DNA of 64,000 bases from an uncultured Oscillospiraceae bacterium (GCA_964391915.1 CAYMNV010000002.1:52531-116530); one strand, 5' to 3'. Numbered from the stretch's first letter, positions 1,000 through 59,777 are shown. Made by a program: numbers and translations. Notes: generated from the letters alone by a model not told the origin.

Positions 1000-1702
1000 C
1001 GCGGTGCTATTTCATATGTATATTTTCTGAGGAAAAATATTGGCCTATACTTGGGCCGGATTCCATATCATCGCATCCTTTCGACTTGAGCATGCTTTTT
1101 ATGAGTATCATTTACCAGCATCACCGGCTCATGCCACAGCACCGAAACAGCGGCAAGACCGAATGCGGTGAGCAGTTGCCCGCCGGAGAGCGGTATCCTG
1201 ATTGCTCCCATGGCACAACATTAAAGGCCGGTGTTTCTCAGGGGGACATAAAAATAACACACCGGCAGAACATACTACTGTCCTGCAGATGTGCATCAAA
1301 TGCCGTCTGCTGCCGCTCTTTGGGCGGCCCGGCCCCACGCCCGTGCGGGCATCGCCTGCTCAGTTTGTACTGTTGATCTTGCATTTCAGTTTCCGTGAAA
1401 TGTAATGCAGCGCAAAGAGGTTAGTTGTTATTATATGCGGTGAAAGAAGAACTGTCAATCAGATAAATAAAATGTTGGCAATTTTTCTGTCGGCCTTTTT
1501 CTCAATTCGTCTTCTTGCGCGTAATTGGGCAGACGGTTTCAAGCAAAACGCCTTTTGTCAGGCTGGTTTTGCCAGACAAAGCCGTTTTAAAAAAGAGAAG
1601 GCCTTTCCTTTATCGTTGAAAATTTCCAGTCATAAAAATTCATGAGGGGAAAACACTATTCTTGCAAACGCAAAACACAGCAAAACAAGGAGTGAAAAAT
1701 TT

Positions 1703-1882
1703 ATGGCGAACAAACAGGCTAAGAATTCTCTTGAACAGTTCAAACAGGAAGCTGCGAGCGAAGTCGGTGTCAATCTGAAACAGGGTTACAATGGGGATCT
1801 CACTTCCCGTCAGGCCGGTTCCGTCGGTGGCCAGATGGTCAAAAAGATGATCGAGTCCTACGAAAACAGCATGAATGGGTAA
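1703..1882 (+). CDS. Small acid-soluble spore protein, alpha/beta type
   Basis: 59-codon ORF below the track cutoff. AAGGAG lies 10 nt upstream of ATG 1703. Product MANKQAKNSLEQFKQEAASEVGVNLKQGYNGDLTSRQAGSVGGQMVKKMIESYENSMNG shows the conserved SASP blocks (E.A.E.GV, G.LTSRQ.G.VGG.M.K..I). A terminator follows. Confidence 0.85.
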   Translation: MANKQAKNSLEQFKQEAASEVGVNLKQGYNGDLTSRQAGSVGGQMVKKMIESYENSMNG

Positions 1883-1906
1883 TGGATTCGTCCTTTGACG
1901 GATCGC

Positions 1907-1936
1907 GGAGCCGGATGGATTCCGGCTCCATTTTTT
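1907..1936 (+). terminator. Intrinsic terminator after the SASP gene
   Basis: GGAGCCGGA-tggat-TCCGGCTCC followed by A-TTTTTT. Confidence 0.8.
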
Positions 1937-2099
1937 ATGGGCGCTGCCGGCAGGTACGCGGATTCCGGCGCGATTTCGTCTCTTTTGTTGCGTTTTGTCC
2001 GTTTTTGGACGCGAATCCGGTCATAAACGGTTGAAATTATCCGAAAATTCCTTTATAATTATTTCTCGGAAAGCAGTCGTTTTTTCGGGAGGTGGCAGT

Positions 2100-3365
2100 A
2101 TGGCGTTCGCTGAGGATCTCAAAAAAGCGGAGAAACTGCGCGCTTCGGGCAAAAACGGCGCCGCGGTTGCCGCCCTGGAATCCGTCTGGGTGGGCCGCCT
2201 CACGAAACAGGAACTCCAACAGCTCCGGGATTTTTTTGACGGGATCCCGGAACAGGAACGCAAAAACTCCATGACCCACTGCCTTCAGGAAATGGAACTC
2301 GACTGGCTGGAAGGCCGGTTTTCCGATATTGACGTCTGGCACGAAGCCCTGACCGCCCGGAGGAGCAAGTTCCATGAGGAATCCCCGGCAAGGACGCAGC
2401 TGGAGACATATATCTGTGCCGCGAATCTGCTTCGCGTGCCGAAGGAAAATTCCCGTCTGCTGCTGATGCTCGGGATTCTGTATAACGGGGGACGGGGCTG
2501 CTCGCCCTATCCGATCCTTCCGACCGGCCGTATGCCGAGCGTCCTGCGCGGCAGCAGGGATCTCTCCGATCTGACGGTCTACGCCGGCGCGGTGAGCGCG
2601 ATTGTCCGCCCGATGCTGCCTGCGCTTTCCTTCGGAAACGGCGGCGGGCTTGTCGAATGCGCGCGCGCCGAGCTGTTTTATGAGCAGAATGATCTGACCC
2701 GGGCTTCGCTGGAGGTCGCCTCTGCGCTCCATGCGGAGGAGCCGGAAATCTTATTTGCCGCCTATGCGCTCATGACCCGCCTGCGTGCGCTGGAACCTTC
2801 CGGTCCGGGTTGGCGCGATGCCGCAGCGCATCTTGCCCGCATGCTGAAGGAGAAGCGCGCGGAGTGGCTTTTCCCGAATTTCGAGGCGTTTCAGGCGCGC
2901 ATGGAGGCGCTTGCCGGGAATCTGGATGCGGTGCGGCTCTGGCTGGATTCCGCCGAGGATGAGTGGGACGGGATCACGCCGGAGAACTTTTACCGGATGG
3001 CGACCAAAGCATACGCCTATTTAAGTCTCGGCCGGTATCAGGAGGCGCTCTCTCTTCTCGAGCAGCTCCGGCAGATCATTTCAAGGGATAACCGCGTGCT
3101 CGACCACGTCGATACCCTCTGCTGCATGACGGTGGCGCTGGATGCACTGGGCAAGCGAGAGTTCGCGCTGGAAAAGCTGCGGGAGGCTCTGGATTTGGCG
3201 GAGCCCTTCGAATATATCCGCGCCGTTGCGGATAAGGGCGGGGCGATTCTGCCGCTTCTGGATGCGCTTTCCGACGGCAGCGCCTACTTTGGCCGCGTAC
3301 GCCGGGCGGCGGAAAGCTTTGCCGCCGTTTACCCGGATCTATATGCGGTTTCGTCCGCTTCCTGA
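2100..3365 (+). CDS. Hypothetical helical-repeat (TPR / MalT-sensor-like) protein
   Basis: Track ORF 1995..3365. Start placed at ATG 2100 (GGGAGGTGG 6 nt upstream; MAFAEDLKK). The sequence is all-helical and repeat-like, resembling the superhelical region of MalT/LuxR-type large regulators. I see no NTPase motif and no HTH. Family call is by eye only. Confidence 0.55.
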   Translation: MAFAEDLKKAEKLRASGKNGAAVAALESVWVGRLTKQELQQLRDFFDGIPEQERKNSMTHCLQEMELDWLEGRFSDIDVWHEALTARRSKFHEESPARTQLETYICAANLLRVPKENSRLLLMLGILYNGGRGCSPYPILPTGRMPSVLRGSRDLSDLTVYAGAVSAIVRPMLPALSFGNGGGLVECARAELFYEQNDLTRASLEVASALHAEEPEILFAAYALMTRLRALEPSGPGWRDAAAHLARMLKEKRAEWLFPNFEAFQARMEALAGNLDAVRLWLDSAEDEWDGITPENFYRMATKAYAYLSLGRYQEALSLLEQLRQIISRDNRVLDHVDTLCCMTVALDALGKREFALEKLREALDLAEPFEYIRAVADKGGAILPLLDALSDGSAYFGRVRRAAESFAAVYPDLYAVSSAS

Positions 3366-3391
3366 ACGGCATCGGCAGGTGCCGTTTTTTT
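3365..3391 (+). terminator. Intrinsic terminator
   Basis: AACGGCA-tcggcagg-TGCCGTT followed by a T-run, overlapping the stop codon of the upstream gene. Confidence 0.7.
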
Positions 3392-3625
3392 GCGCCTGTT
3401 TTTTAAAAAGCGGATACCTCCGTTTTTGAAGCGGCCCCGGGAGAATCTTTGCCGAGGAACATTCCGCCGCATGTTTTTCGGCGTGGAAACATGAATTTGG
3501 CGGCGGACGCATCCATGAGAAAAGAGCGGATCACCTATCGGCATCACCCAAAAACACGAAAGCGCGGCGCGTGGCGTCGTTTTTATTTTCTCATAAAGCC
3601 GCCGGAGCGGTCTCTGATTCAGCCA

Positions 3626-3666
3626 AGAAAAACGCCCTCAGGATTTTGTTGAATCCTGAGGGCGTT
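3626..3666 (-). terminator. Intrinsic terminator of the symporter gene
   Basis: 15-bp arms AACGCCCTCAGGATT / AATCCTGAGGGCGTT. A T-run follows on the minus strand (AAAAA at 3626-3630 on plus). Confidence 0.8.
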
Positions 3667-3681
3667 GTCATGCCTGCGGGC

Positions 3682-5130
3682 TTACCGCATCGTTTTTTTA
3701 CGCTTCCCAAAAATATAGGCCCGGAAGGAGATCACGTTCATGATGAGGAAGAGGGCCGTCACGACGCCGAGCGTCAGCCAGGCCTTTCCGATGCTCACCG
3801 GGGCCACGCTCAGGAGCAGCAGCATCGGGAATCCGAAGAGGATTGCCCACGGCTGGTGGTAAACAAGGTTGCTGGCGGCCTGGGTTTCAAACTTCGGGTC
3901 CGTTTCGCGCAGGAGGATGATGCCGGTGCTGGCGGTGCCGGTCAGCATGCCGTAAAGCGAGAGAAAGGCCTCGTCCCGGTAGAGGTAAAATACTTTTTTG
4001 CAGACGATATCCAGATAAAAATAGGTTGCCGCGCCGCCCAGCAGGCAAAGGAGGGCCAGCGGGACCACAAAGTTCCGGTGGGTGAAGGCGGAGAGGTCGA
4101 TCGCGGCGATGGAGGCCACCACCATGATGTCGAACATGAAGCCGGAGATGCGGTTCTGCAGGAAGTTATTCATGTATTCCCGGCGGATTACACCCTTTTT
4201 CTTCAGCTTGTTGAGCAGAGCCTTAAGCAGCAGGGCAAAGATGGTGCCGAGCAGAAAGTTAAAGGGCCAGAGCGTCGTCTTGAGCACATTGCCGAAACCG
4301 CCGAGCACGCCGGAATCGGCCAGCGCGTTGACGCCGAGCAGGGAGAGGTAGGCCATGCTGTACGCCAGAAAGACCAGGGCGACCTGAATCGTAAATTTAT
4401 CCATCGCCTCGGTCAGCGGGATTTCTCCGTCTCCCATGACGTCGTTCAGCGTGACGCGCTCCGATTCGCAGGCGGAGCCGATCTCGCCGGAAAAGCGGCC
4501 CTTTTTTCGCAGAACGTTGAGGTAAATGATGCCGCCGATGCTCGCCGCGATGAATCCCATGGCCGCGACGGTCAGGCCGAAGCTCGTGCCGTTGACGAAG
4601 CCGTAGCTGTTTTCGTAGGTACGTCCCCAGGTATAGGCGTTGCCCGGTCCCTGCCCGTAGCCGAGAGGCAGCAGCATGCCGGAGGCAAAGAAACTGCCCA
4701 GCGCATAATAACAGCCGATCGAGACGATCATGCCGAGAACGGCCTGCATCAGATAGGTTGCGACGACGGTGACGCCGGTGTCAAAGCCGCCGGTTTTCAT
4801 CGTGCGGCCCTCCTGCAGCTCCGTGTTGCGCAGGGACATCGCCACAAACCCGAGCCCGAGCCCGTGGTAGGTGAGCGTCTCCAGCGTGGAGGTCGGGAGC
4901 AGGGGATTGCCGGTGATCTCCCGGTAAAGATACCCGGCGAAGAGGATCAAAAAGCCGCCGAGGACGGAGCTGGGGATCATCAGCCTGCGGAGGGCGGGGA
5001 TCAGGTTCCGCAGGGTGTTCGCCGCCATCATGGCGAAAAAGAGCAGAGTCAGCGTCACGATGAAGGACCATACTTCCTTATCCCAGAGGTTGATTCCGGT
5101 TGTCATAAAGGCACCGCCTTTCGTTTCCAT
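3682..5130 (-). CDS. Sodium/glutamate symporter-like (GltS/ESS family) membrane transporter
   Basis: 482-aa polytopic membrane ORF. The N-terminal region (LRNLIPALRRLMIPSSVLGGFLIL) resembles the start of GltS. An alternative start is ATG 5106. Substrate is not determinable from sequence. Confidence 0.55.
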   Translation of the reverse strand: METKGGAFMTTGINLWDKEVWSFIVTLTLLFFAMMAANTLRNLIPALRRLMIPSSVLGGFLILFAGYLYREITGNPLLPTSTLETLTYHGLGLGFVAMSLRNTELQEGRTMKTGGFDTGVTVVATYLMQAVLGMIVSIGCYYALGSFFASGMLLPLGYGQGPGNAYTWGRTYENSYGFVNGTSFGLTVAAMGFIAASIGGIIYLNVLRKKGRFSGEIGSACESERVTLNDVMGDGEIPLTEAMDKFTIQVALVFLAYSMAYLSLLGVNALADSGVLGGFGNVLKTTLWPFNFLLGTIFALLLKALLNKLKKKGVIRREYMNNFLQNRISGFMFDIMVVASIAAIDLSAFTHRNFVVPLALLCLLGGAATYFYLDIVCKKVFYLYRDEAFLSLYGMLTGTASTGIILLRETDPKFETQAASNLVYHQPWAILFGFPMLLLLSVAPVSIGKAWLTLGVVTALFLIMNVISFRAYIFGKRKKTMR

Positions 5131-37986: not shown

Positions 37987-38056
37987 GCGTGTTCCGGCGC
38001 GGAAACAGAAGAAAACCTGCAAAAGTGATGGGAATGTGAAAATATTTATTCTTATC

Positions 38057-38084
38057 ATTCATAATAAAATAAAATATTATGAAT
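38057..38084. promoter_or_regulatory. Perfect 10-bp inverted repeat in the AT-rich pocket upstream of the WYL regulator gene
   Basis: ATTCATAATA-n8-TATTATGAAT. A TGgTATAAT extended -10 follows at 38163-38171. Confidence 0.35.
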
Positions 38085-38195
38085 TATACTCATGTAAAAA
38101 TGAAAAATCGTCAAAAAATGACGCTGAAATTTGTTTCTATTCCATTTCTTGATAAAATTTTTTGGTATAATTAACCAAGAAAGGGGAGGACAGCG

Positions 38196-39191
38196 TTGGC
38201 GGGACAGACAAAGGAGAAGCTTCTTTATATCCTTGACATTCTCAAAAAGACCGATGAGCAGCATCCGGTCAATACGGTGGAGATTCTGAAGATCCTGGAG
38301 GACAGGGGTCTTGTCGCCGAGCGCAAATCCATCGCGCGGGACATTGCGGTTCTCAGGGAGACCGGCTATTCGATCATCTCCTGCGACGAGCTGAAAAAAG
38401 GCTTTTACATGACCGATCAGCTCTTTGAGGATTATGAGCTTAAAATGCTGGCGGATGCGATCTCCGGAGCAAAATTCCTCACGGAGGAGGATACGGAGAA
38501 TCTCCTTAATAAGCTGGCCCAGCTTGCGACGCCGACCGGCGAGGAGATCCTGAGGGAGCAGACCGTCATCGACCCGGCGATCAAAACCGACAACCGGACG
38601 GTGCGGTATAATATCGATAAGATCATCACCGCGATCAAGCAGCGCCGCCGTATCCTGTTTCGGTATTTTGAGAGGGCGGAGGACGGAAGCCTCAAATTCA
38701 AAAGGAGCGGCCATGTTTACGAAATTTCCCCGTATTATCTGGTCTGGTCGGAGGATGAGTATTATCTGATCGGCAACAGCAAGAGCCACGACCATCTGAC
38801 GCATTTTCATGCGGACATGATCACCAACGCCGAGATCAGTGATCTGTCGGTTCGGCCGTGCTCGGAGATCGAGGAATTCCGCGGCGATTTTTCCATCTGC
38901 GACTATCTGCGGCGGAACGTCAACATGTTTACCGGGCCGGATACGGAGATCGAAATGCTTGTCAGTCCTGCCATCGTCAAGGACGTCGTCAAGCGCTTCG
39001 GAAACGAGCTGCGTTTTGAGGCCATGCCCGACGGGAGATCCCGGGTATCCGTCCGCGCCGCGGAGGGCGAGGGTACGCTTCGCTGGCTCTGCGGGTTCGG
39101 CGTGGACGAGCTCAAGGTCGTCGGTCCGGAGAGCGTCCGTGCCGCGATGGCGCAGCGAGCCTCCGCGGCGGTGCGGGCTTATTCCGGATAG
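38196..39191 (+). CDS. WYL-domain transcriptional regulator (wHTH-WYL-C-terminal extension)
   Basis: TTG start after AAAGGGGAGGA. N-terminal wHTH (VNTVEILKILEDRGLVAERKSIARDIAVL) and WYL core (ISPYYLVWSEDEYYLIGNSKSHDHLTHFHADMI). Confidence 0.8.
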   Translation: MAGQTKEKLLYILDILKKTDEQHPVNTVEILKILEDRGLVAERKSIARDIAVLRETGYSIISCDELKKGFYMTDQLFEDYELKMLADAISGAKFLTEEDTENLLNKLAQLATPTGEEILREQTVIDPAIKTDNRTVRYNIDKIITAIKQRRRILFRYFERAEDGSLKFKRSGHVYEISPYYLVWSEDEYYLIGNSKSHDHLTHFHADMITNAEISDLSVRPCSEIEEFRGDFSICDYLRRNVNMFTGPDTEIEMLVSPAIVKDVVKRFGNELRFEAMPDGRSRVSVRAAEGEGTLRWLCGFGVDELKVVGPESVRAAMAQRASAAVRAYSG

Positions 39192-49933: not shown

Positions 49934-50009
49934 GCTGGTGTAGCTCAGTCGGTAGAGCAGCTGATTTGTAATCAGCAGGTCGGGGGTTCGAATCCGTCCA
50001 CCAGCTCCA
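49934..50009 (+). tRNA. tRNA-Thr (anticodon UGU)
   Basis: Hand-folded 76-nt cloverleaf. Acceptor GCTGGTG/CACCAGC, D stem GCTC/GAGC, anticodon stem GCTGA/TCAGC, loop TTTGTAA, T loop TTCGAAT, encoded CCA. One G-G mismatch in the T stem. Confidence 0.85.
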
Positions 50010-50032: not shown

Positions 50033-50118
50033 GGGAGCGTACCCAAGTGGCTAAAGGGGGCAGACTGTAAATCTGTTGTCTAACGACTACGGTGGTTCGA
50101 ACCCACCCGCTCCCACCA
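50033..50118 (+). tRNA. tRNA-Tyr (anticodon GUA)
   Basis: 86 nt. Acceptor GGGAGCG/CGCTCCC, anticodon loop CTGTAAA, long variable arm (TGTCTAACGACTAC), T arm GGTGG-TTCGAAC-CCACC, encoded CCA. Confidence 0.9.
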
Positions 50119-50122
50119 GAGA

Positions 50123-50172
50123 AAAACCGCACGGTTAAGCCTTAATTGGCATGCTGTGCGGTTTTTGTTTTT
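50123..50172 (+). terminator. Intrinsic terminator after the tRNA pair
   Basis: AAAACCGCAC...GTGCGGTTTT followed by TGTTTTTT. Confidence 0.8.
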
Positions 50173-50186
50173 TGTCTTAAAATCGG

Positions 50187-50219
50187 TTTGACCCCAATTT
50201 GACCACAATTTGACCCCAC
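50187..50219 (+). repeat. Three tandem 11-bp direct repeats
   Basis: TTTGACCCCAA TTTGACCACAA TTTGACCCCAC, located between the tRNA terminator and the recombinase remnant. Confidence 0.9.
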
Positions 50220-50232
50220 TTTTCAAAAAAAT

Positions 50233-50430
50233 CAGTAGGCCAGCTTCTGCGATGCGTTCTTGATGTCCTCGGCGTCTACGTCAAAGTAAATCTGCGCGGT
50301 CGCCAGCGAAGCGTGGCCGAGAATCTTCTGCACGTCTTTTGCCAAGGCACCGCCGCGGGTGAGGCAGGTGACAAACGTGTGCCGGCACTTGTGCGAAGAC
50401 AGATCATCCATCAGTTTCTCTCGGCTTACT
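50233..50430 (-). pseudogene. 3'-terminal remnant of a tyrosine recombinase/integrase gene
   Basis: My translation of the minus strand: ..REKLMDDLSSHKCRHTFVTCLTRGGALAKDVQKILGHASLATAQIYFDVDAEDIKNASQKLAY*. It carries the HxxR and LGH...Y catalytic blocks. The upstream in-frame sequence loses similarity, and a stop at 50577-79 leaves no room for the ~250 N-terminal residues. Confidence 0.7.
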
Positions 50431-50592
50431 ATAAAGGCAGCGTTGACGACATGGGTTATCCCGGTGTTGATTCCGATGGGAAAAGTTGTATAATATAAAC
50501 CGATCCCGGCGCTTTTTGCATAAAAAAGGATTTTTCCGGGGGGCTGTTTTCCGGGATGCCCGGCAGGACATAAATTTTAAAACGGAGTGCCT

Positions 50593-51876
50593 ATGAGCGA
50601 AACGAATGCGATTGTGGAGGCATACAGCGTCGTCATCTCCATGCTGCTGATCTCGTGCCTCGTTTTCTGCAAGGATTACAAAACAAAGCTGGGGCGGCTG
50701 TTTCTTGCGATGCTCATCGTAAATGTGCTGATCCTTGCAAGCGACATCATCACATGGGTTTTTGACAAAAATCCGAGATACAACACCTTGATGATGGCGG
50801 CAAACTTTTTTGTCTATCTCTGGAGTTATGTTTTCGCCGCATTTTATACCACATATCTGACAGCCTGTATCGAGCAGAAAAAACCGCTCCGCCGCGCGAA
50901 AGCATTTCTGTATACGGTTTACGGAACATGCATGCTCGCAGCCGTCATGCTCGTGGTATCTCTGTTTAACCATATGTATTTTTATCTTGATGAGTATGGC
51001 GCCTATATCCGCGGGCCGCTGTATAGTGTTTCCCTGATTTTTTCGATCTGTCTGGACATCGCCAATATGGCGATGATTCTTATCCATTGCAGGGTACTTG
51101 GGCTGCCGGATACGCTTGCGCTGCTTTCCTACGGTTTTCTGCCCCTCATCGCGATGGCCGTGCGCATTTACATCTACGACATCACATTTTTGTATTCCTC
51201 CACCACCGTGTCGCTGCTTATCATTTATATTTATATTCAAAACAAACAGAGGCAGCGGCTGTATCGGCAGGAGCGGGAGCTTGCCGAATCGAAAGTCGAT
51301 CTGATGATTTCCCAGATCCAGCCGCATTTCATCTTTAATACGCTGAATTCGATCCGAGAGCTGATCTACAGCGACGTCAACAAGGCCGATCAGATGGTCG
51401 TCCATTTTTCCAAATATCTGCGTGCCAATATCGGTTCCCTGCAGAGCACCTCGGTCGCCTTTTCCGACGAACTGCAGAATGTGGGGGTTTACCTGTCGAT
51501 TGAAAAGGAACGCTTCGGCGATAAAATCCGTTATGTGGAAGAGATCGGCTGCCGGTCGTTTTTCCTTCCGCCGCTGATCATCCAGCCGATCGTGGAGAAT
51601 GCCGTAAAGCACGGCATCTGCCAAAAAGCGGAGGGCGGCACCGTCAGACTCACCACGCAGCCCGAAGGAGACTACATAAAAATCACCATTGAAGACGACG
51701 GGGCGGGGTTTGACGTCGCGGAGAAAAAAGCGGATTCCGTCGGCATCAATAACGTCAGAATGCGGGTGAAATACATGCTCGGAACCGATATGAAAATCGA
51801 GAGCGAACCCGGCATCGGCACGAGGGTGGAAATTCTGGTGCCCCAAAACTACGCGGGAGAGGATGAGCATCGTTGA
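50593..51876 (+). CDS. LytS/YehU-type sensor histidine kinase (His_kinase + HATPase_c), polytopic N-terminus
   Basis: Track ORF starts at GTG 50587; ATG 50593 is 6 nt from AACGGAG. About 6 TM helices, then the family signature ISQIQPHFIFNTLNSI and an ATPase domain (VENAVKHG, DDGAGF, GIGTR). Confidence 0.85.
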   Translation: MSETNAIVEAYSVVISMLLISCLVFCKDYKTKLGRLFLAMLIVNVLILASDIITWVFDKNPRYNTLMMAANFFVYLWSYVFAAFYTTYLTACIEQKKPLRRAKAFLYTVYGTCMLAAVMLVVSLFNHMYFYLDEYGAYIRGPLYSVSLIFSICLDIANMAMILIHCRVLGLPDTLALLSYGFLPLIAMAVRIYIYDITFLYSSTTVSLLIIYIYIQNKQRQRLYRQERELAESKVDLMISQIQPHFIFNTLNSIRELIYSDVNKADQMVVHFSKYLRANIGSLQSTSVAFSDELQNVGVYLSIEKERFGDKIRYVEEIGCRSFFLPPLIIQPIVENAVKHGICQKAEGGTVRLTTQPEGDYIKITIEDDGAGFDVAEKKADSVGINNVRMRVKYMLGTDMKIESEPGIGTRVEILVPQNYAGEDEHR

Positions 51877-52655
51877 AAGCGATCTATGTCGACGACGAAA
51901 ATCTGGCCCTGAGTCTTTTTTGCCGGATCACGGAAGGCCTCGGCGGCGTGACGTTTGAAGTGTTCGGCGATCCCGGCGGCGCCCTTTCCTATGCCGAAAC
52001 GAATCCGATCGATCTTGCCTTTCTGGATATCGAAATGCCGGATCTCGGCGGCATTGAGCTTGCAAAAAGGCTGAAGGAACTGGATCCCAATATCAGCGTG
52101 GTGTTTGTGACGGCCTATGCAAAGTATGCCCTCGACGCCTTTGGGGTGGATGCGATCGGTTACCTTTTAAAGCCGTACCTCCGCGAGGATATCGAAAAGT
52201 ACATCGAAAAGAAAAAGCACATCCTTCCGGTTTACAGAAAAAGCGTGCGGATTCAGACCATGCCGGATTTTCATCTTTTTGTGGATGGCGCGGAGATCCG
52301 GCTCGGCAATACCAAATATGCGGAAATGCTGGCGGCGATCGTGGCTTCCGGCGGCAGCGTCTCCTCCTCCAATTTATCCTTTCTGTTGTGGGAGGATTCC
52401 GCGCTGACGGAGAAGACGATGAATGCCTTTCGGGTCGCCTTCAGCCGTCTCAAAAGCATTCTGGAGGGAAACGGGATCGGCTATATCCTGCACAGCGACA
52501 AAACCACGCGGTATCTCGATAAAAATGCGGTATCCTGCGACTTCTTTGACTTACTGGACGGAAAGGAAGAGGCAATCAAAAGCTATAAGGGATTCTTTTT
52601 GGAGGAATATGCATGGTCGGAGTCAATTAAGGAAAAGCTGAAAATCCATATATAA
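51873..52655 (+). CDS. Response regulator: receiver + SARP/OmpR-like winged-helix output
   Basis: TTG start overlapping the kinase stop (TTGA). REC (IYVDDE, FLDIEMPDLGG, YLLKP). C-terminus VRIQTMPDFHLFVDGAEIRLGNTKYAEMLAAIVASGGSVSSSNLSFLLWED...AFSRLKSIL...RYLD...CDFFD follows the pattern of SARP N-terminal wHTH domains. Confidence 0.75.
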   Translation: MKAIYVDDENLALSLFCRITEGLGGVTFEVFGDPGGALSYAETNPIDLAFLDIEMPDLGGIELAKRLKELDPNISVVFVTAYAKYALDAFGVDAIGYLLKPYLREDIEKYIEKKKHILPVYRKSVRIQTMPDFHLFVDGAEIRLGNTKYAEMLAAIVASGGSVSSSNLSFLLWEDSALTEKTMNAFRVAFSRLKSILEGNGIGYILHSDKTTRYLDKNAVSCDFFDLLDGKEEAIKSYKGFFLEEYAWSESIKEKLKIHI

Positions 52656-52668
52656 CCAAGAATTTTGG

Positions 52669-52708
52669 AAGATCCTGCGGAAAAAACAAAGCCGCAGGAT
52701 CTTTTTTT
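52669..52708 (+). terminator. Intrinsic terminator after the two-component genes
   Basis: AGATCCTGCGG-n10-CCGCAGGATCT followed by T7. Confidence 0.9.
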
Positions 52709-52736
52709 GGTCTTTTTTGCGAATTTCCTGTCGAAA

Positions 52737-52770
52737 TGTAACGGTTCTGTAACGGTCTCTTTTTTATAAT
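52737..52770 (+). promoter_or_regulatory. Direct-repeat activator site plus -10 element
   Basis: TGTAACGGT at 52737-45 and 52748-56 (exact, 11-bp phasing). TATAAT at 52765-70 begins 8 bp after the second repeat. No -35 hexamer. Confidence 0.55.
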
Positions 52771-52795
52771 ATAAGAAGAAAAAGCGCGGATATTC

Positions 52796-54370
52796 ATGGG
52801 GATGATTCTGAAAACGGGCCGTGAAAAGCCGGGCGCGCCGGCCGGACACGGTTCCCATTTGCGGGAAGGGATACGGAACATGGTAAAAGCAACCAGAGCA
52901 GGCGGCTTTGCGGCACAAAACGGCGGCACCATCCTCAACTGTTACAGCACCGTTATGCTGAAAGCAAAATGTACCGCAACCGGCGGCTTTGTCGGAGAGA
53001 ACGACGGAAGCATTTCAAAAAGTTTCTGCGGCGGCCGGCTCGGGCATCTGACCGGCGGCTTTGTCGGCGTGGGCGGCGGCAGCCAGAAGGACGGGTGCTA
53101 TTTTTTCTATGCGGGAAAAAACGACGGCGGAAAACTTTCGGCGCTGTTTGACGGCTACCTCGGTCAGCAGATCAAAAACATAAAAAATGCGCAGGACACG
53201 GAAAATCTCGGTTACGACCTTCAAACGATCTTTGAATATACGGAAGGGGAGAAGGTTCCGCTTCGTTTCAACCCCGAAAACTGGCTGTTCGATACGGAGC
53301 GGGATTGCGGGACTGCACCCTCCGTGCTCATAAAAACGGCGGACGAGCTGTATGAGCTCGCGGAAAAAATCAACGGCGGCGACCGCGGGCTTGCCGGTGC
53401 CCATATCGCCTTGGAACATGATCTCGATCTGGGCGGCAGGGAATGGATACCGATCGGCTCGGACCGGACAAACGCTTTTACCGGGGTGTTTGACGGTGCG
53501 GGGCATACGGTTAAAAATTTTGTCGTCAAAAACAAATCCGTTCAGGATAAAGGCTTTTTCGGCTTTCTGAAAGGTAAGGTTTATAACCTTTCGGTGGACT
53601 GCATCCTGAGGGACGGCCTGTGCGTCGGCGGAATCGCCGCACGGTGCGACGGCGGCACGATCGGGTGCTGCTCCGCCGTGGTGGGGATATCCGGGAAAGC
53701 GGAGGATGCCGGCGGCCTGGTGGGAAGAAACAGCGGGGTAATTTTTCAAAGCTATGCGGGCGGCGTGCTGGAGACCGAGGCGATTCCTTGGCGATGGCTG
53801 TTATTGCCCGTTATTTTTGCTCTGCTGGCGGTTCTGATCTGGAGTTTTTCCAACGCAAGAAACAGCATCCCGATTTTTGCTCCGGTCCCCTACGATCCGG
53901 ATGCGGTCATCAATCCGGAGGAGAGCGGCGATGCCTCCCAACCCGGCGGCAACTTCGTCTCCTTCCAATTTGAGCAGAATATCGACGTGGATCTCTCCGC
54001 GGGGCTCTGCAACTTCAATTTTAAAAACCCGGGCGAATCCAATCACAATATCGTGGTAAAGCTTCAGTTCACCGACTCCCAGGCGGTCACCATCATGGGC
54101 AGCACGGGCAGAACCGAAAAGGAGCAGAAGAAGCTCGAAAGCACGGAGGGCTACGACCCCGACACCTACCGCGTCACCATCGCGGAATCCGGAGCCATCC
54201 GTCCGGGCTATCTGCTGGAAAATCTCCGCTTAGTCGATCAGGCAAACGGTGCGACGGTTCCTCCGGGGAGCTACAACGCCGTGGCCTACCTGATCTTCTA
54301 TGATAAAGACACGAATGAACGGGCGATGCTGGAATCGCAGCTTCCGGTCGTCATTACCGTTCATGACTAA
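52796..54370 (+). CDS. GLUG-motif protein with internal TM helix and C-terminal small domain
   Basis: GLUG-type repeats (GGFVGENDGSISKSF, VGGIAARCDGGTIGCCSA, AGGLVGRNSGVIFQSYAGG) plus the usual LDLGGREWIPIG...FTGVFDGAGHTVKNF core. TM helix WRWLLLPVIFALLAVLIWSF, then ~165 aa. No signal peptide. The better RBS (GGGAAGGG) precedes ATG 52880. Confidence 0.7.
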   Translation: MGMILKTGREKPGAPAGHGSHLREGIRNMVKATRAGGFAAQNGGTILNCYSTVMLKAKCTATGGFVGENDGSISKSFCGGRLGHLTGGFVGVGGGSQKDGCYFFYAGKNDGGKLSALFDGYLGQQIKNIKNAQDTENLGYDLQTIFEYTEGEKVPLRFNPENWLFDTERDCGTAPSVLIKTADELYELAEKINGGDRGLAGAHIALEHDLDLGGREWIPIGSDRTNAFTGVFDGAGHTVKNFVVKNKSVQDKGFFGFLKGKVYNLSVDCILRDGLCVGGIAARCDGGTIGCCSAVVGISGKAEDAGGLVGRNSGVIFQSYAGGVLETEAIPWRWLLLPVIFALLAVLIWSFSNARNSIPIFAPVPYDPDAVINPEESGDASQPGGNFVSFQFEQNIDVDLSAGLCNFNFKNPGESNHNIVVKLQFTDSQAVTIMGSTGRTEKEQKKLESTEGYDPDTYRVTIAESGAIRPGYLLENLRLVDQANGATVPPGSYNAVAYLIFYDKDTNERAMLESQLPVVITVHD

Positions 54371-54391
54371 AAAACAAAGGAGAAGATAACC

Positions 54392-55153
54392 ATGAAAAAA
54401 GTTTTATCAGCTGCCATTGCGCTTATGATGATGATGGCGATGTTTGTCCCGGCATTTGCGGAAGACGGCGTTGCGCCTGCGGCACCGGCGGGCGGCACGG
54501 CGGCGGTCACCAGCAGCGACGGCACAACCTGGGTAGTCGCCAACGACGACGATGAAATTACCTCGAGTTCCGACCACGAAACCAATATCAACGTCTGGGC
54601 GGAGGTCAAGGACAACGGAACGAGCGTCTACAAAGTTGACATCACCTGGGGCGAAATGAAATTCGAGTTTAACAGCGGAACAAAATGGAATGTGGATACC
54701 CATACTTACACCGCTGTGGAGGGCGTCACCGCGGGATGGCAGGTGAACGGTTATTTGGACGGAACGAACAACAGGATTATCGTAACCAACCACTCCAATG
54801 AGGCCATTGAGGCCACCTTTGCGTATGCCATGGCCGATACGAATATCTTCAACACCGATGCGAGCGCCAGTAATCCAACGCACGTGGTCGGCAACTTCTT
54901 TGAGGACAACACAGCCGCGGTAACCGCCGCCGGCGTTTCCGACGTAAGCACTGTCGTGGGTACGATCACAGGCAACAAGATAACAGTTGCCTCCGCCGAT
55001 AACGGCACAGAAGGCGGAGCCGGAAATCCTGTAACGGAAGATGTCTTCTTCGCGTTCAGCGGCATTCCGGATTCGGGCAAAGGCGCGGACCTCGCCGATT
55101 TCACCAAGGTCGGCGTGATCACCGTCACGATCGCGGTTGCTGCTGTTGGATAA
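54392..55153 (+). CDS. Secreted protein sharing a C-terminal domain with the 1116-aa protein
   Basis: AAGGAGAAG RBS and signal peptide MKKVLSAAIALMMMMAMFVPAFA. Residues ~65-253 are paralogous to 58771..59247 (VYKVDITWGEMKF, WNVDTHTY, NNRIIVTNHSNEA, FTKVGVITVTI). Confidence 0.8.
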   Translation: MKKVLSAAIALMMMMAMFVPAFAEDGVAPAAPAGGTAAVTSSDGTTWVVANDDDEITSSSDHETNINVWAEVKDNGTSVYKVDITWGEMKFEFNSGTKWNVDTHTYTAVEGVTAGWQVNGYLDGTNNRIIVTNHSNEAIEATFAYAMADTNIFNTDASASNPTHVVGNFFEDNTAAVTAAGVSDVSTVVGTITGNKITVASADNGTEGGAGNPVTEDVFFAFSGIPDSGKGADLADFTKVGVITVTIAVAAVG

Positions 55154-55200
55154 GTAAACGGTGCTAATCTTCTGCAAGTAGAGATTCTACTCCGCACCGG

Positions 55201-55269
55201 CCTTCCCTTTCACGGGATGGGCGGCATAAAAATGGGATAGGATCCATTCGCCGCCCGTGAAAGGGAAGG
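55201..55269 (+). other. Long imperfect intergenic stem-loop
   Basis: CCTTCCCTTTCACGGG(atg)GGCGG ... CCGCCCGTGAAAGGGAAGG. 19 bp with a 3-nt bulge, ~26-nt loop, no T-run. Confidence 0.6.
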
Positions 55270-55356
55270 CATTGCATAAGGGAGCAGATCCGACCGTCTC
55301 ACGCTGCGGGAGACGGAAACCTTTTTTCAACGTTTTTTGCAGAAAGGACAAGCATT

Positions 55357-55872
55357 GTGAGAGCACAGCCCACCAAACTGCAGACAGGAACAGGGAGAAA
55401 GCGCCTGCTTCTTTTTTCAGCCGCGGCGCTGATTCTGTTGCTGGCTGCCGGAATTGTATACATAAAGAACGATGAGCCGCCGTATCGTCCGCCGCTTTGG
55501 GAAGAAAACGCCGTCAACGGCGTTCCCGAACCGGAGGAGAGCCTGAATTACGGTACGATTGAAACGGACGGCGGTTTGATCTTTGCGCTTGCCGGCACCA
55601 TGTACCAGCAGGAGGACGGCTCGCTTCTTCTTTATTTTACAAATCCCGAAGACAGCGGGGTTCTGATGATGTGCGAGATCCGCGGGGAGGGCGGCAAGGT
55701 CCTGTATCAAAGCGGGATGCTTTCTCCGGGGCAGTATGTCGAGCGCCTATATCCGCAATGCAAGCTAAAAAACGAAGCGATGAAAATTGAAATGAAAGTC
55801 TACGGCTTTGAGCCGGAGACCTATTACAGCATGGGTACGGTCACCTTGGAAAATACCCTGCAGCCATGGTAA
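55357..55872 (+). CDS. N-terminally anchored small protein, paralogous to the C-terminal domain of the GLUG protein
   Basis: GTG start 8 nt after GAAAGGA. Basic N-terminus plus TM (GRKRLLLFSAAALILLLAAGIVYI). Ectodomain shares F.NP..S, SG.(I/L).PG.Y.E.L and terminal beta-like strings with 53900..54367. Confidence 0.65.
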   Translation: MRAQPTKLQTGTGRKRLLLFSAAALILLLAAGIVYIKNDEPPYRPPLWEENAVNGVPEPEESLNYGTIETDGGLIFALAGTMYQQEDGSLLLYFTNPEDSGVLMMCEIRGEGGKVLYQSGMLSPGQYVERLYPQCKLKNEAMKIEMKVYGFEPETYYSMGTVTLENTLQPW

Positions 55873-55899
55873 ACATCCTAAAGAAAGGAGGTGAGGCGA

Positions 55900-58800
55900 A
55901 TGATGAAAACAGTAAGCCGAAAACTCTTTGCTGCGCTGATTGCATTCGCGATAGTGGGAACGGTGCTGCCGGAGCCTTCGTTTGCCATGACGAATACCAC
56001 CGTCAGTTCCATAACTTCTGCGACGGCGGCGGGTACGACCCTTTCCGACGGCTATACATATAAAGTGACCTCCAATGTCACCATAACGAACAACTCCACG
56101 GGCGGAAACGGCCTGAATATCGCATCCGGCGCAACGGTTGTCATCTATATCGCATCCGGCTATACGCTGACCGTAAAGGGCGGAAACGGCTCGGGCACAA
56201 TCGGCGGCGGCGCGGGAATTTATCTTCCAAACAATTCCATACTGATTCTTACCGGCGGCGGACGGTTGTCGGCGACCGGCGGCATGGGTACGTCGCCCGG
56301 CTCCGGATATTCCGGAGACTATGCGTATTTCACGGGAGACTGTGACTATCTGTATGGCGGCACCGGCGGCAGCGGCGGATACGGCGGCGGCGGAGCCGGC
56401 GCAGGAATCGGCGGAAACGGCGGGACCGGCGGCAGCGGCGGCAGCTACGGAACAAACAACTGGAGCAGCGGTTTTTTATGGAGTAAAGGGAACAGAGACG
56501 GAAATGCCGGCGGCACCGGCTATAGCGGCGGAAATGGCAGCGCCATGGGGACTTTATATGTTCTCGGAAGCGTGACGGTCTACGCCTATGCGGGTACTTC
56601 CTATTCCACTTCACGCGGGAACGGCGGATCGGGCGGCAGCTCTGTGGCGGGGTATTATACCACTTATGGCCAGTATGCCTCTGCCACAGGCGGTGCCGGC
56701 GGAGGCGGCGGCGGAGCCGGCGGCAATGCGGCAAACATCGGCGGCGGCGGTGCCGGCGGTGGAGGCGGCGGCGGAGGCGGCGGCGGAAGCTACCACTATA
56801 AAACCGGAGGGAGCTACTGCTACATGATCCGCGGTGGTTCCGGCGGCGGAGGCGGTGGAGCTTCCGGCTACGGCGGCTATGCCGGCGACCTCTCGACCGG
56901 TATCCGCCAGTATTGGCGCGACGGCTACTTTGGCAGCAATACGATTCAGTGGAAGGGCGATACGGGAAAAGCCGGTACAACCAGTGGCGGCACCGGCGGC
57001 GCCAGCACGACGCTGGATAGTTATTGGGGCGGTACCGGCGGCAACGGAGGCTCTGTGGGCAGCGGCGGCAGCGGCGGCAGCGTGTATGTGGCGCCGACTG
57101 CAAGCGTGACGACACCGAGCGGAAGTTCGGCTTCGACCGGAAACGGCGCCGCGGCCAGCAGGTCTTCCTATTCCGGAACACCTGCCGCAGTAAGCAATAT
57201 CCTGTATTTGAACAATACGAACAGCAGCAATACCGCGGCGGGCTCCAATGCGGCGAGCTATACCGTTGCTTACGGCAACGCGCTGCCTTCGGCGGTAACG
57301 GTTCCGATACTTCAGAATTATTCCTTTATGGGCTATTATACCGGGCTCGGCGGCACGGGCACACGGGTGTATAACCACCGCGGAGAAAAGCTCGTAAGTG
57401 AATGGAGTTGGACAAGCAACCTGACGCTCTATGCCTATTGGAAACAGAGTCAGTTCGTGATAACCTTCAACCAGCAGAACGGCACGGGCGGCACAAGCAG
57501 CATCATTACCGGCGTAACGATCGATGAGGGTACCGGGGATATCACCGATAAGGGTATCCTTACGGCGCTTTCAGTTCTTCCGACAAGGACGCATTACGCC
57601 TTTGCGGGATATTACGATCAGGCCTCCGGGAACGGAACCAAGTATTACAGTGCGGACGGTACGCTCACGAGCAGCGCCGTAAGGATCACCGAAAATAAAA
57701 CGCTGTACGCCTGCTGGACGCAAAACCAATATAGTGTGATCTTTAACAGGAACGGCGGGCTCGGCGGCACGGAAAGCGCCTATACCACCGGCACGGACGG
57801 AACGCTTCCTGCCATATCCGTTCCCACAAGAACCGGATATGCCTTCACCGGGTATTACGGCACGGCAAGCGGCGGGACCTGTTATTATGATGCTGCCGGT
57901 ACTGTGCAGAGCGCAAAGCTTTCCGCCAATACGACGGTGTATGCGAACTGGAGCGAGGCTTCCTATTCCATTACCTACAATCTTAACGGCGGAACGGCCG
58001 GAACAAATGCGCCGGCTTCTTATTCCTACAGCGTGGGGGCCGTCGTTTCCAATCCGACAAAAGCGGAGTATACCTTTACCGGCTGGCAGATCAACGGCGG
58101 TACCGAGAGAATCCGGAATTTTTCCATCTTGGCAAACGACGCGGGCTATGCGAAGAACCTGACGCTGGAAGCCGTATGGACGAAATCGGCCGACGTCAGT
58201 ATTTCGATCGACAGCGAAATTTCCGAAGAAGTACAGGCTTCCGCCAATACGAACAGCCAGCTTGAAGCGGTTTTCAATACCGTGGTCGGTGATGAAAACG
58301 GCGGGGTCACGGCGGACGATCTCTCGCCGGATAATGCCGTTTCGTTGAAACTTTCCGTCAGTGCGGCCGATCCGGAAGGCACCGCTTCATCGGATGCGGA
58401 GGCAATTGCCGATATCGCGCAGGGCAGTGCGGAAAAGTATTACGACATCCGCGCCATAAAAACAGTGATTACGGGAGAAAACAGCACAGAATATACCTTG
58501 ACGGAGATTCCTTCTTCCGTAGAGGTGCTGATCCCGATTAGCGGCGATCTTTCCGGGCGGGAATCCTACTTTGTCTACCGCTATCACGACGGCGTTGCGG
58601 AAAGGCTTCCTCTTGGCCCGCCGGCAGATGCATCCGACAGCGCGGAATACTACTATATTGATTCCGCAAACAGCCAGATCGTCGTCATGACGCGCAAATT
58701 CTCCACCTATGCGGTATACAGCTCCAACCTGTCCCTCAGCGGGGAAGGGTATTTCTATTCCGGGAACAACAATGTGGATGTTCAGGCGCGAATCGCGGAG

Positions 58801-59250
58801 GATACCAGCAAAGTGTATAAAATAGACATCGGCTGGGGAAGCATGAAATTCGTGTACTCCACGGACTCGGAATGGAATGTGGATACGCACATGTATTCGG
58901 AAGGCTCCTATAACGACTGGCTGCCGTCCTATTTCGACGCGGTAAACAATAAAATCACCATGCTGAATCACAGCAACGGTGCGGTAAAGATCACTCTGAC
59001 GGTCACGGAAAACGCTCTGGCCGGCGTCGGTATGTCGCTGCATCTGTATAACGAAATCACTTCCGCCGAGACGGAAAGTTATCTTCTTGATGCGGCCGCA
59101 GTGGGTGCCACGAATGAGGAACTGATTCCGGCGAATGCGTATCTTTTCCTGAGCGGAACTCCGGAGAGAAGCTGGATCAACGACGACGGGAACCTGACTT
59201 TTCAAAAGGTCGGCGTGATCACAGCCACCATTGAGCCATACGCGGGCTAA
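55900..59250 (+). CDS. Large secreted protein: Gly-rich region, four Listeria-Bacteroides (InlB B / Flg_new) repeats, C-terminal shared domain
   Basis: Track ORF from GTG 55891; ATG 55900 follows AAAGGAGGTGAGG. Signal peptide ..AIVGTVLPEPSFA. Gly-dominated stretch at about 56300-57150. Four B-repeats at about 57230-58190 (e.g. YSITYNLNGGTAG...YTFTGWQ...LTLEAVW). C-terminal domain at 58771-59247. No LPXTG, SLH or lipobox. Confidence 0.85.
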   Translation: MMKTVSRKLFAALIAFAIVGTVLPEPSFAMTNTTVSSITSATAAGTTLSDGYTYKVTSNVTITNNSTGGNGLNIASGATVVIYIASGYTLTVKGGNGSGTIGGGAGIYLPNNSILILTGGGRLSATGGMGTSPGSGYSGDYAYFTGDCDYLYGGTGGSGGYGGGGAGAGIGGNGGTGGSGGSYGTNNWSSGFLWSKGNRDGNAGGTGYSGGNGSAMGTLYVLGSVTVYAYAGTSYSTSRGNGGSGGSSVAGYYTTYGQYASATGGAGGGGGGAGGNAANIGGGGAGGGGGGGGGGGSYHYKTGGSYCYMIRGGSGGGGGGASGYGGYAGDLSTGIRQYWRDGYFGSNTIQWKGDTGKAGTTSGGTGGASTTLDSYWGGTGGNGGSVGSGGSGGSVYVAPTASVTTPSGSSASTGNGAAASRSSYSGTPAAVSNILYLNNTNSSNTAAGSNAASYTVAYGNALPSAVTVPILQNYSFMGYYTGLGGTGTRVYNHRGEKLVSEWSWTSNLTLYAYWKQSQFVITFNQQNGTGGTSSIITGVTIDEGTGDITDKGILTALSVLPTRTHYAFAGYYDQASGNGTKYYSADGTLTSSAVRITENKTLYACWTQNQYSVIFNRNGGLGGTESAYTTGTDGTLPAISVPTRTGYAFTGYYGTASGGTCYYDAAGTVQSAKLSANTTVYANWSEASYSITYNLNGGTAGTNAPASYSYSVGAVVSNPTKAEYTFTGWQINGGTERIRNFSILANDAGYAKNLTLEAVWTKSADVSISIDSEISEEVQASANTNSQLEAVFNTVVGDENGGVTADDLSPDNAVSLKLSVSAADPEGTASSDAEAIADIAQGSAEKYYDIRAIKTVITGENSTEYTLTEIPSSVEVLIPISGDLSGRESYFVYRYHDGVAERLPLGPPADASDSAEYYYIDSANSQIVVMTRKFSTYAVYSSNLSLSGEGYFYSGNNNVDVQARIAEDTSKVYKIDIGWGSMKFVYSTDSEWNVDTHMYSEGSYNDWLPSYFDAVNNKITMLNHSNGAVKITLTVTENALAGVGMSLHLYNEITSAETESYLLDAAAVGATNEELIPANAYLFLSGTPERSWINDDGNLTFQKVGVITATIEPYAG

Positions 59251-59725
59251 AACCGCAGGCACCGAAAAAGGGCAGGCTGCCGTATTTTTATTGCGGCGGC
59301 CCGCCTTTTTTATCCGGCAGAAAAAAATGCTTGGCCTGAAAACAAGAAAATCCGCATGAGCATGAATGCCTGCGAAACGGATTCCCTTGAGCATGCCCAT
59401 CCGCGTCGGCACCGCTTTTTGAGCACAGCCGGTGGCACATACAAAATATCGGTGATTTATTATAAAATTGATTATATATAATATCTAATTCGATGAATTC
59501 CACGGGGATAATTTTCTATAAAACGGAGAAAAATATGGAATGGGCTTGTTTTTCCAGCAGAAACTGTTATTATTATAATGTTCTTTTAACTTTTTATGAA
59601 AATGGAGCGAAGAGAAATGAAGCCCCGAAGTTCTGCCAACAGAACCGAATCCTGTAGCTCGTCCGCGGTGCGCAGCAGGTACTACGGGAAGGGCTGCTGC
59701 AACCATAAGCATAGACCGACAAGAT

Positions 59726-59761
59726 AAGAGCACCATTGCGGCGCTCTTTTTTCTTTTTTTT
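59726..59761 (+). terminator. Terminator/attenuator immediately upstream of purB
   Basis: AAGAGCaCC-attg-cGGcGCTCTT followed by TTTTCTTTTTTTT. Ends 16 nt before ATG 59778. Confidence 0.6.
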
Positions 59762-59777
59762 CAAAGCGGAAAGGGTG

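Follow-up and report, generated by a model that had tools for sequence, protein, structure and literature searches.

We have analysed a 64,000-nucleotide stretch of DNA from an uncultured Oscillospiraceae bacterium (GCA_964391915.1 CAYMNV010000002.1:52531-116530; below, the window, with positions counted from its first letter) in which a two-component system and a four-gene operon lie between a tRNA-Tyr gene and purB. A preliminary description had proposed that these six genes form a tRNA-flanked island encoding a self-contained surface assembly under dedicated signal control. Here we report that the four operon products share two domains, one of them (domain X) in genes 1 and 3 and the other (domain Y) in genes 2 and 4, and we suggest that the set could be a regulated module that displays a large protein on the cell surface independently of sortase. 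The genes and signals of the module are as follows.

50587-51876, + strand: sensor histidine kinase (HK), with Pfam matches to PF06580 His_kinase and HATPase_c
51873-52655, + strand: response regulator (RR), with a REC domain (Pfam) and a putative OmpR/PhoB-like winged-helix C-terminus
52671-52708, + strand: intrinsic terminator after the RR gene, a 10-bp GC-rich stem and a T7 run, read from the sequence
52737-52770, + strand: direct-repeat promoter, two copies of TGTAACGGT and then TATAAT, identified from the sequence and the chance expectation
52880-54370, + strand: gene 1, 496 residues, β-helix, transmembrane (TM) helix and domain X (X1 type)
54392-55153, + strand: gene 2, 253 residues, signal peptide, ~55 disordered residues and domain Y alone ('small Y')
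55357-55872, + strand: gene 3, 171 residues, basic N-terminus, one TM helix and domain X (X3 type)
55891-59250, + strand: gene 4, 1119 residues, 'large Y' protein (Pfam, NCBIfam, BLASTP and hidden Markov model searches)
59275-59311, + strand: terminator that closes the operon after gene 4

Two shared domains in a four-gene operon

The four genes are separated by gaps of 21, 203 and 18 nt. Gene 2 had been said to resemble the C-terminus of gene 4, and BLASTP bears this out (E 8e-19, 43% identity over 79 residues), with the likeness reaching the final residues of both proteins (FTKVGVITVTI and FQKVGVITATI). In the AlphaFold 2 (AF2) model, domain Y is a β-sandwich of ~170 residues (core pLDDT >85) that follows a disordered stretch of ~55 residues in gene 2; its conserved motifs are VYKVDIxWGxMxF, THxY, VTNHSN and KVGxITVTV, and it has no WxL pair. 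In gene 4 a signal peptide is followed by a Gly-rich region, by at least three Listeria-Bacteroides (Flg_new) repeats and by domain Y at residues 961-1119. We note that residues 60-470 of this protein (55891-57300) contain long GGxGGxG runs with a 9-nt periodicity in the DNA, and that the protein as a whole is 17% Gly; the runs match no Pfam family and could form a Gly-rich β-helix or a polyglycine-II-type structure. A pattern scan for LPXTG-type signals picks out only an internal IPDSG in gene 2. This motif, together with the hydrophobic end of the protein, was considered as a sorting signal and rejected: the stretch that follows it is a core β-strand of the fold, no basic tail is present, and the more distant, short-type Y proteins described below lack it.

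A word-indexed search for close homologues returned 49 for gene 2, 19 for gene 3 and ~70 full-length proteins for gene 1, and all named homologues of genes 1-3 are hypothetical proteins, mostly from Oscillospiraceae metagenome-assembled genomes. The Y family is far larger than this search suggested: an exhaustive profile search finds at least 3,297 representatives (50%-identity clusters) at E <=1e-3, and 1,996 at E <=1e-10. In eight of the eight listed carriers that are longer than 470 residues and have an N-terminal passenger, Y ends no more than seven residues from the C-terminus, and the passengers vary (Flg_new, β-helix, fn3, cohesin). A tblastn search of plasmids with a short Y protein gave no match.

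The second proposed likeness, between the C-terminus of gene 1 and gene 3, stands at the level of profiles and not of single sequences. BLASTP of one against the other is not significant (E 0.35), whereas hhalign, comparing profiles of 32 and 18 homologues, aligns them over 108 columns with a probability of 94.5% (E 7.5e-8) and places an insertion of ~32 residues in gene 1 relative to gene 3. The AF2 model of gene 1 (pLDDT 89.8) comprises a β-helix at residues 1-300, a TM helix at 304-327 and a β-sandwich at 360-495. Gene 3, whose cytoplasmic part amounts to only ~15 residues, and the X1-type proteins of the short modules described below have basic N-termini ahead of a single TM helix, and domain X is therefore predicted to lie on the outer face of the membrane.

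Gene 1 is preferably started at 52880 rather than at 52796, because a GGAAGGG ribosome-binding site and the lengths of its homologues favour that position. The protein lacks a signal peptide and contains only one hydrophobic segment, and 29 of 32 homologues match GLUG in Pfam or NCBIfam. GLUG β-helices are otherwise seen in secreted proteins. Here, the β-helix is most likely cytoplasmic, because there is no signal peptide and only one TM helix, because the N-terminal 300 residues are rich in Cys (there is none in gene 2, and only four occur among the 1119 residues of gene 4), and because some homologues are fused to an extracytoplasmic function (ECF) sigma factor with no intervening TM helix. 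The fusions are found in three homologue clusters (P0106, P0110 and P0112; 754-779 residues), in which a complete ECF sigma-70 (regions 2 and 4) is N-terminal and is joined through a Ser/Gly-rich linker; the GLUG part is not preceded by a TM helix. We note that one related locus, L087, has a sigma-fused gene 1 homologue at 1526-3790 and neither kinase nor regulator; judged by its domains, such a fusion would tether a sigma factor to the membrane, together with a GLUG β-helix and, outside the cell, an immunoglobulin-like (Ig-like) domain. Sigma fusion occurs in some gene 1 homologues only, there is no sigma gene in the block of the window, and no anti-sigma domain family was recognised in gene 1 or its 32 homologues. 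The cytoplasmic β-helix of gene 1 may be the signalling part of the protein. The four genes had been described as tightly packed envelope genes ahead of purB; the packing is confirmed, but the N-terminal 300 residues of gene 1 most likely lie inside the cell.

None of the four products carries an LPXTG motif, S-layer homology (SLH) domain, CWB2 or choline-binding repeat, or lipobox, by Pfam, NCBIfam and motif checks, nor is there a Gram_pos_anchor match, which agrees with what had been read from the sequence at the outset. The view that this is not a recognised system likewise held up. X and Y have no match in Pfam, NCBIfam or the sequences of the PDB (profile searches with Y, gene 1 and gene 3), and when 26, 32 and 50 members of the families were scanned against Pfam and NCBIfam, only GLUG, in the N-terminal part of gene 1, and passenger domains were returned. 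A single match to DUF7658 (E 0.021) did not recur in other members and was discarded. Foldseek searches with the model of gene 2 against the PDB and BFVD, and with that of gene 1 against the PDB, gave nothing at E <=0.001. Literature searches found papers on WxL proteins and no description of the X/Y domain pair.

Conservation and regulation of the module

The module recurs with variations in several loci of 45-55% identity. The arrangements in five related loci, labelled L001, L003 and so on, are these.

L085: HK, RR, gene 1, gene 2, gene 3 and gene 4 in the same order as in the window; gene 1 at 85% identity, from a related species
L001: RR, gene 1, gene 2, gene 3, a large Y protein and a second large Y protein
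L003: two HK, three RR, gene 1, gene 2, a cytoplasmic GGDEF protein instead of gene 3, and two large proteins
L088: two HK, RR, a receiver-like protein, gene 1, a Y protein, a degenerate Y protein and gene 3
L087: sigma-fused gene 1, a large Y protein, a small Y protein and gene 3; no two-component system

X and Y occur together in all the related loci that were examined, very distant ones included, and the combination of an X1-type gene, an X3-type gene and at least two Y genes is found in the window, in L001, L085, L087 and L088, and in the distant short modules L089, L096 and L097. The proposal of a self-contained gene set is thereby supported, both by the order kept in L085, with its variants elsewhere, and by the co-occurrence of X and Y in distant modules. 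Y lies at the C-terminus of the complete large protein of L003; the second large protein runs off the end of the locus. The protein in the gene 3 slot of L003 has a PAS-GGDEF architecture; it was considered as an X3 fusion and rejected, being cytoplasmic and devoid of an X domain. Genes for a methyl-accepting chemotaxis protein (MCP), SpoIIE and GGDEF proteins lie downstream in L088. We also note single-domain receiver-like proteins directly upstream of the gene 1 homologue in L003 (8072-8428, 118 residues) and in L088 (9518-9979, 153 residues), which are possible cytoplasmic partners of the gene 1 β-helix.

The short modules, whose Y proteins are ~30% identical to gene 2, have a characteristic order: a large protein, a cohesin-like protein fused to Y, a TM protein with X1, two Y proteins, a TM protein with X3, and a protein with an SPxTG motif. 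Their X1-type protein lacks the cytoplasmic domain entirely. In L089 (3-7252) and L096 (1143-6866) the large protein is a giant of leucine-rich-repeat type with dockerin-like repeats at its C-terminal end, and the gene for the cohesin-like protein with Y follows directly. In Pfam these matches stay below threshold (Cohesin E 1.8e-4 and 0.024; Dockerin_1 E 0.003); one other Y protein matches Cohesin at 2.4e-13. These two modules may contain a non-cellulosomal cohesin-dockerin pair. L097 has no cohesin-like protein with Y, and its 1650-residue large protein itself ends in a Y that matches the cohesin-Y protein at E 2.7e-27. The exchange of a direct fusion in L097 for a cohesin-dockerin arrangement in L089 and L096 therefore points to Y as the part by which the passenger is retained. 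Each short module closes with a gene (L089 9550-10272, L096 9139-10062, L097 9160-9849) for a secreted protein whose C-terminus reads SPQTGD, SPATGD or SPKTGD followed by a hydrophobic stretch and a basic tail, and which resembles a (S/P)PxTG-type sortase substrate.

The regulatory genes of the window begin with an N-terminal part of the kinase that contains several hydrophobic membrane segments (multi-pass), ahead of PF06580 and HATPase_c, and the start of the RR gene overlaps the HK stop by 4 nt. The REC match of the regulator is clear; its C-terminus aligns weakly with OmpR-family DNA-binding domains and has no Trans_reg_C match in Pfam. Full-length HK orthologues adjoin the module in L085, L003 and L088, and full-length RR orthologues in L085, L001, L003 and L088. 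Two further sites accompany the signals listed above.

50467-50494, + strand: sigma-70-like promoter TTGATT-16-TATAAT ahead of the kinase gene (consensus scan)
52938-52957, - strand: inverted imperfect copy of the repeat, CATAACGGTGCTGTAACAGT, in the 5' end of gene 1, with three mismatches

A terminator and a direct-repeat promoter had been read between the RR gene and gene 1, and we find both. The hairpin at 52671-52708 is conserved in L085, as is the stretch that contains the kinase promoter. The repeats, TGTAACGGT-TC-TGTAACGGT at 52737-52756, start at 52737 and 52748 with an 11-bp period and are followed 8 nt downstream by TATAAT; 0.02 such tandem patterns are expected per window by chance. 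TGTA repeats with 11-bp spacing occur at the equivalent site upstream of gene 1 in L085 and L001, and the TGTAACGGT repeats are probably a binding site for the regulator. An 8-nt distance between repeat and -10 element resembles that of SARP/OmpR-type activators. The inverted copy CATAACGGTGCTGTAACAGT lies ~190 bp downstream of the promoter repeats, which makes two matches where 0.02 are expected. This copy may be coincidental, or it may serve the regulator as a second site, for looping or repression.

Proposed surface retention and competing explanations

We propose, with a probability of about one half, that the block is a regulated, sortase-independent surface display module that uses WxL-like logic built from unrelated parts. 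The kinase would sense an envelope or environmental cue and phosphorylate the regulator, which would bind the 11-bp-spaced TGTAACGGT repeats and switch the operon on. Two Y proteins would then be secreted, namely the small, Y-only product of gene 2 and the 1119-residue, Gly-rich/B-repeat adhesin-like product of gene 4, while genes 1 and 3 would provide single-pass membrane proteins that expose paralogous Ig-like β-sandwiches (X) outside. By holding or assembling Y domains, the X proteins could retain the large protein without a sortase, SLH or lipid anchor, and the cytoplasmic GLUG β-helix of gene 1 would probably signal to the cell interior what state this complex is in, adding feedback to transcription. 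It had been suggested that small partner proteins dock or anchor the large repeat protein, and by analogy this is still the best reading of what they may do.

The analogy is with the WxL/Csc clusters of Lactobacillales and Listeria, in which a small domain-only protein and a large protein with the same C-terminal domain are encoded with a membrane-anchored Ig-like partner that binds this domain (PMC9772566, PMC10599100). Such clusters are defined by at least one WxL-interacting protein (WxLIP) and two WxL proteins within four genes (PMC10599100), the binding by the partner is experimentally supported (PMC10599100, PMC9772566), and the clusters often end with an LPxTG protein (PMC9772566). In the module described here, too, there is a small secreted protein made up almost solely of the shared domain, a large protein that has an adhesin-type N-terminus (β-helix, Ig-like repeats), carries the shared domain at its extreme C-terminus and lacks a sorting signal, and membrane-anchored Ig-like β-sandwich partners encoded alongside; some clusters (here L089, L096 and L097) also encode a sortase substrate. 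The parts nevertheless differ. PF13731 (the C-terminal WxL domain, which has two Trp-x-Leu motifs on neighbouring strands) is found neither in genes 2 and 4 nor in 26 and 50 members of the Y family (at E <=1 and <=0.01), and DUF916 and DUF3324 (PF06030, PF11797) are found neither in gene 1 and its 32 homologues nor in gene 3. The X partner has an N-terminal TM helix as its anchor and one Ig-like domain, whereas WxLIP has a signal peptide, a C-terminal TM helix and two such domains (DUF916-DUF3324). There are two partner paralogues here, X1 and X3, one of them with a 300-residue cytoplasmic β-helix and sometimes a sigma factor; there is a dedicated two-component system; and the hosts are Clostridia, not Bacilli. 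The best reading of this comparison is that the module follows the logic of a WxL cluster as a non-homologous analogue and is not a member of that group.

A further parallel lies in the anchoring scaffoldins of cellulosomes, in which cohesin is joined to an SLH, sortase or TM anchor. The cohesin-like protein with Y in L089 and L096, encoded beside a giant dockerin-ended protein, resembles these, and Y would therefore take the position of the SLH or LPXTG anchor. However, the module of the window has no cohesin or dockerin, the matches in L089 and L096 fall below threshold, and there are no glycoside hydrolases.

Several observations weigh against the display module as we propose it. X sits right at the membrane, so that the wall would have to be spanned by the Y proteins themselves. 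L003 has no X3 gene and has the cytoplasmic GGDEF protein in its slot, and X3 is therefore dispensable in some modules. Fusions of an ECF sigma factor to gene 1 suit a role in sensing at least as well as one in anchoring. Lastly, the only matches from Foldseek are weak and of a generic Ig-like kind (PmoB, pilus chaperones, pilins, TasA).

Two other explanations deserve consideration. In the first, the module would build a sortase-independent fibre or pilus in which Y polymerises, strand complementation being one possible way. Gene 2 would supply the shaft and gene 4 a tip adhesin attached through its Y, and the membrane-anchored X would be a chaperone or assembly platform and not a permanent anchor. 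The likeness to TasA/TapA fibres and chaperone-usher pili lies in the β-sandwich subunits, in a large protein that joins through a subunit-like domain, and in weak Foldseek neighbours, among them TasA, the pilins CfaB, CooA and AggA, and the chaperones SafB, Caf1M and SfaE. Such a fibre would also suit the several Y paralogues per module (up to four in L089 and L096) and the conserved, disordered N-terminal extension of ~55 residues, with a predicted short strand, in small Y proteins of the long type. The structural matches, however, are not significant (E >=1.6e-3; TM-score for Y <=0.26), the short-type Y proteins have no such extension, and AF2 models Y as a complete sandwich to which its own C-terminal strand belongs, with no incomplete fold seen. 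Nor is there any match to a TasA/camelysin, pilin, SipW, usher or chaperone family, and we regard a fibre as unlikely.

In the second, the module would above all be a transmembrane signalling device, with X as extracellular sensors, gene 1 as an anti-sigma-like protein or co-regulator that controls transcription through its cytoplasmic β-helix, and Y as ligands or outputs instead of anchored cargo. Gene 1 resembles the anti-sigma factors of the RsgI/SigI and FecR/FecI systems in being single-pass, with a cytoplasmic N-terminus and an extracellular C-terminal β-sandwich, and in being sigma-fused in some cases; it differs from them in that it has no detectable anti-sigma family, in that its cytoplasmic part is a GLUG-type β-helix, and in that the regulator of the window is a two-component system and not a sigma factor. 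The three clusters of ECF fusions with no TM helix between the two parts, the lack of a two-component system in L087, the single-domain receivers encoded just before gene 1 in L003 and L088, and the GGDEF, SpoIIE and MCP genes embedded in some modules all speak for signalling. Against it, the X1-type protein of the short modules has no cytoplasmic domain, and the ancestral role of X would therefore not be signalling; gene 3, too, has only ~15 residues in the cytoplasm, and the cohesin/dockerin swap indicates a structural role for Y. A signalling role is moreover compatible with an anchor, which could be an anchor that signals too, and as the main function of the module it seems improbable to us.

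That these are unrelated hypothetical surface proteins which by chance lie beside a two-component system, sharing only low-complexity or chance segments, could appeal to the insignificant BLASTP comparison of genes 1 and 3 and to the biased composition of gene 4, but it is refuted by the conservation of order and content across loci of 30-85% identity. The profile comparisons are significant, the shared parts are well-folded β-sandwiches and not low-complexity sequence, and we give this explanation next to no credence.

Returning to sortase-independent display, it is conceivable, and we say so tentatively, that X and Y are a widespread, unnamed anchoring or assembly system of Clostridia that arose separately from WxL, takes on cargo by Y fusion or through cohesin and dockerin, and in the sub-type of the window feeds back to transcription through the GLUG part or sigma factor of gene 1. 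How Clostridia of the gut and of digesters retain their many large repeat proteins is often unexplained, since LPXTG, SLH and CWB signals are lacking; a C-terminal domain that recurs and has membrane partners of its own would account for the anchoring of thousands of such proteins. If this is correct, annotators would gain two new domain families, and there would be a new non-covalent display scaffold that has already been combined with cohesin and dockerin in nature. It would also imply a probable intracellular use of the normally extracellular GLUG-type β-helix, possibly linking surface assembly to gene control.

The borders of the block

The preliminary description placed the block behind a pair of tRNA genes and a decapitated tyrosine recombinase, and these landmarks are borne out.

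49934-50009, + strand: tRNA-Thr (TGT), called by ARAGORN and Rfam
50033-50118, + strand: tRNA-Tyr (GTA), the left landmark of the block, called by ARAGORN and Rfam
50232-50411, - strand: tyrosine-recombinase remnant, 59 residues, C-terminal catalytic region only (PF00589 match)

The open reading frame (ORF) of the remnant matches Phage_integrase PF00589 at E 8e-11 over profile positions 126-170 of 172, that is, over the last 45 only, and the remainder of the recombinase is missing because the promoter-like site (50467-50494) and the kinase gene fill that space. What lies beside the tRNA 3' end, 113 nt from tRNA-Tyr, is thus only a remnant of an integrase. A second sample of the same species (L090) has the identical arrangement of the block, the remnant included. 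Comparing the six block genes with the 46 other ORFs of the window gave the following values.

G+C: HK and RR 0.50; four envelope genes 0.535-0.570; other ORFs 0.58±0.03
G+C at third codon positions (GC3): HK and RR 0.64-0.66; four envelope genes 0.63-0.67; other ORFs 0.75±0.06

The deviations are moderate, at 1.4-2.5 standard deviations, and the synonymous-codon likelihood is under the mean for all six block genes. A run of six low-GC3 genes is unlikely to have arisen by chance, though the single deviations are moderate. The kinase and regulator genes had been estimated to lie about 10 points of G+C below their flanks; they are indeed lower, but by ~8 points relative to the mean, and the envelope genes are near-normal. 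We note that 1-kb windows within 1-2000 and 38001-39000 have a G+C of 0.475-0.481, as low as the kinase/regulator region, and therefore low G+C alone is not distinctive of the block.

No second copy of the tRNA-Tyr 3' end was found in the window with up to three mismatches allowed, and a search for attL and attR found no direct repeat bounding the block. Among the matches listed in a scan of genome contigs with purB, identity did not exceed 64%, and the relatives recovered from metagenomes with the PHP protein encoded nearby were at most 33% identical; in these two scans, which returned distant relatives only, no close relative without the block was found. A tRNA-integrated island is thus plausible but unproven: the case for it is circumstantial and comes from the integrase remnant and the low GC3, but there is no att repeat. 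On the other side of the operon, purB starts at ~59778, and Rfam finds only the two tRNAs within 49-62 kb and no riboswitch or RNA family ahead of purB. The spacer of 465 nt between the closing terminator and purB (59312-59777) contains a very AT-rich patch at 59440-59500 and a GC-rich, structured-looking part at 59600-59740.

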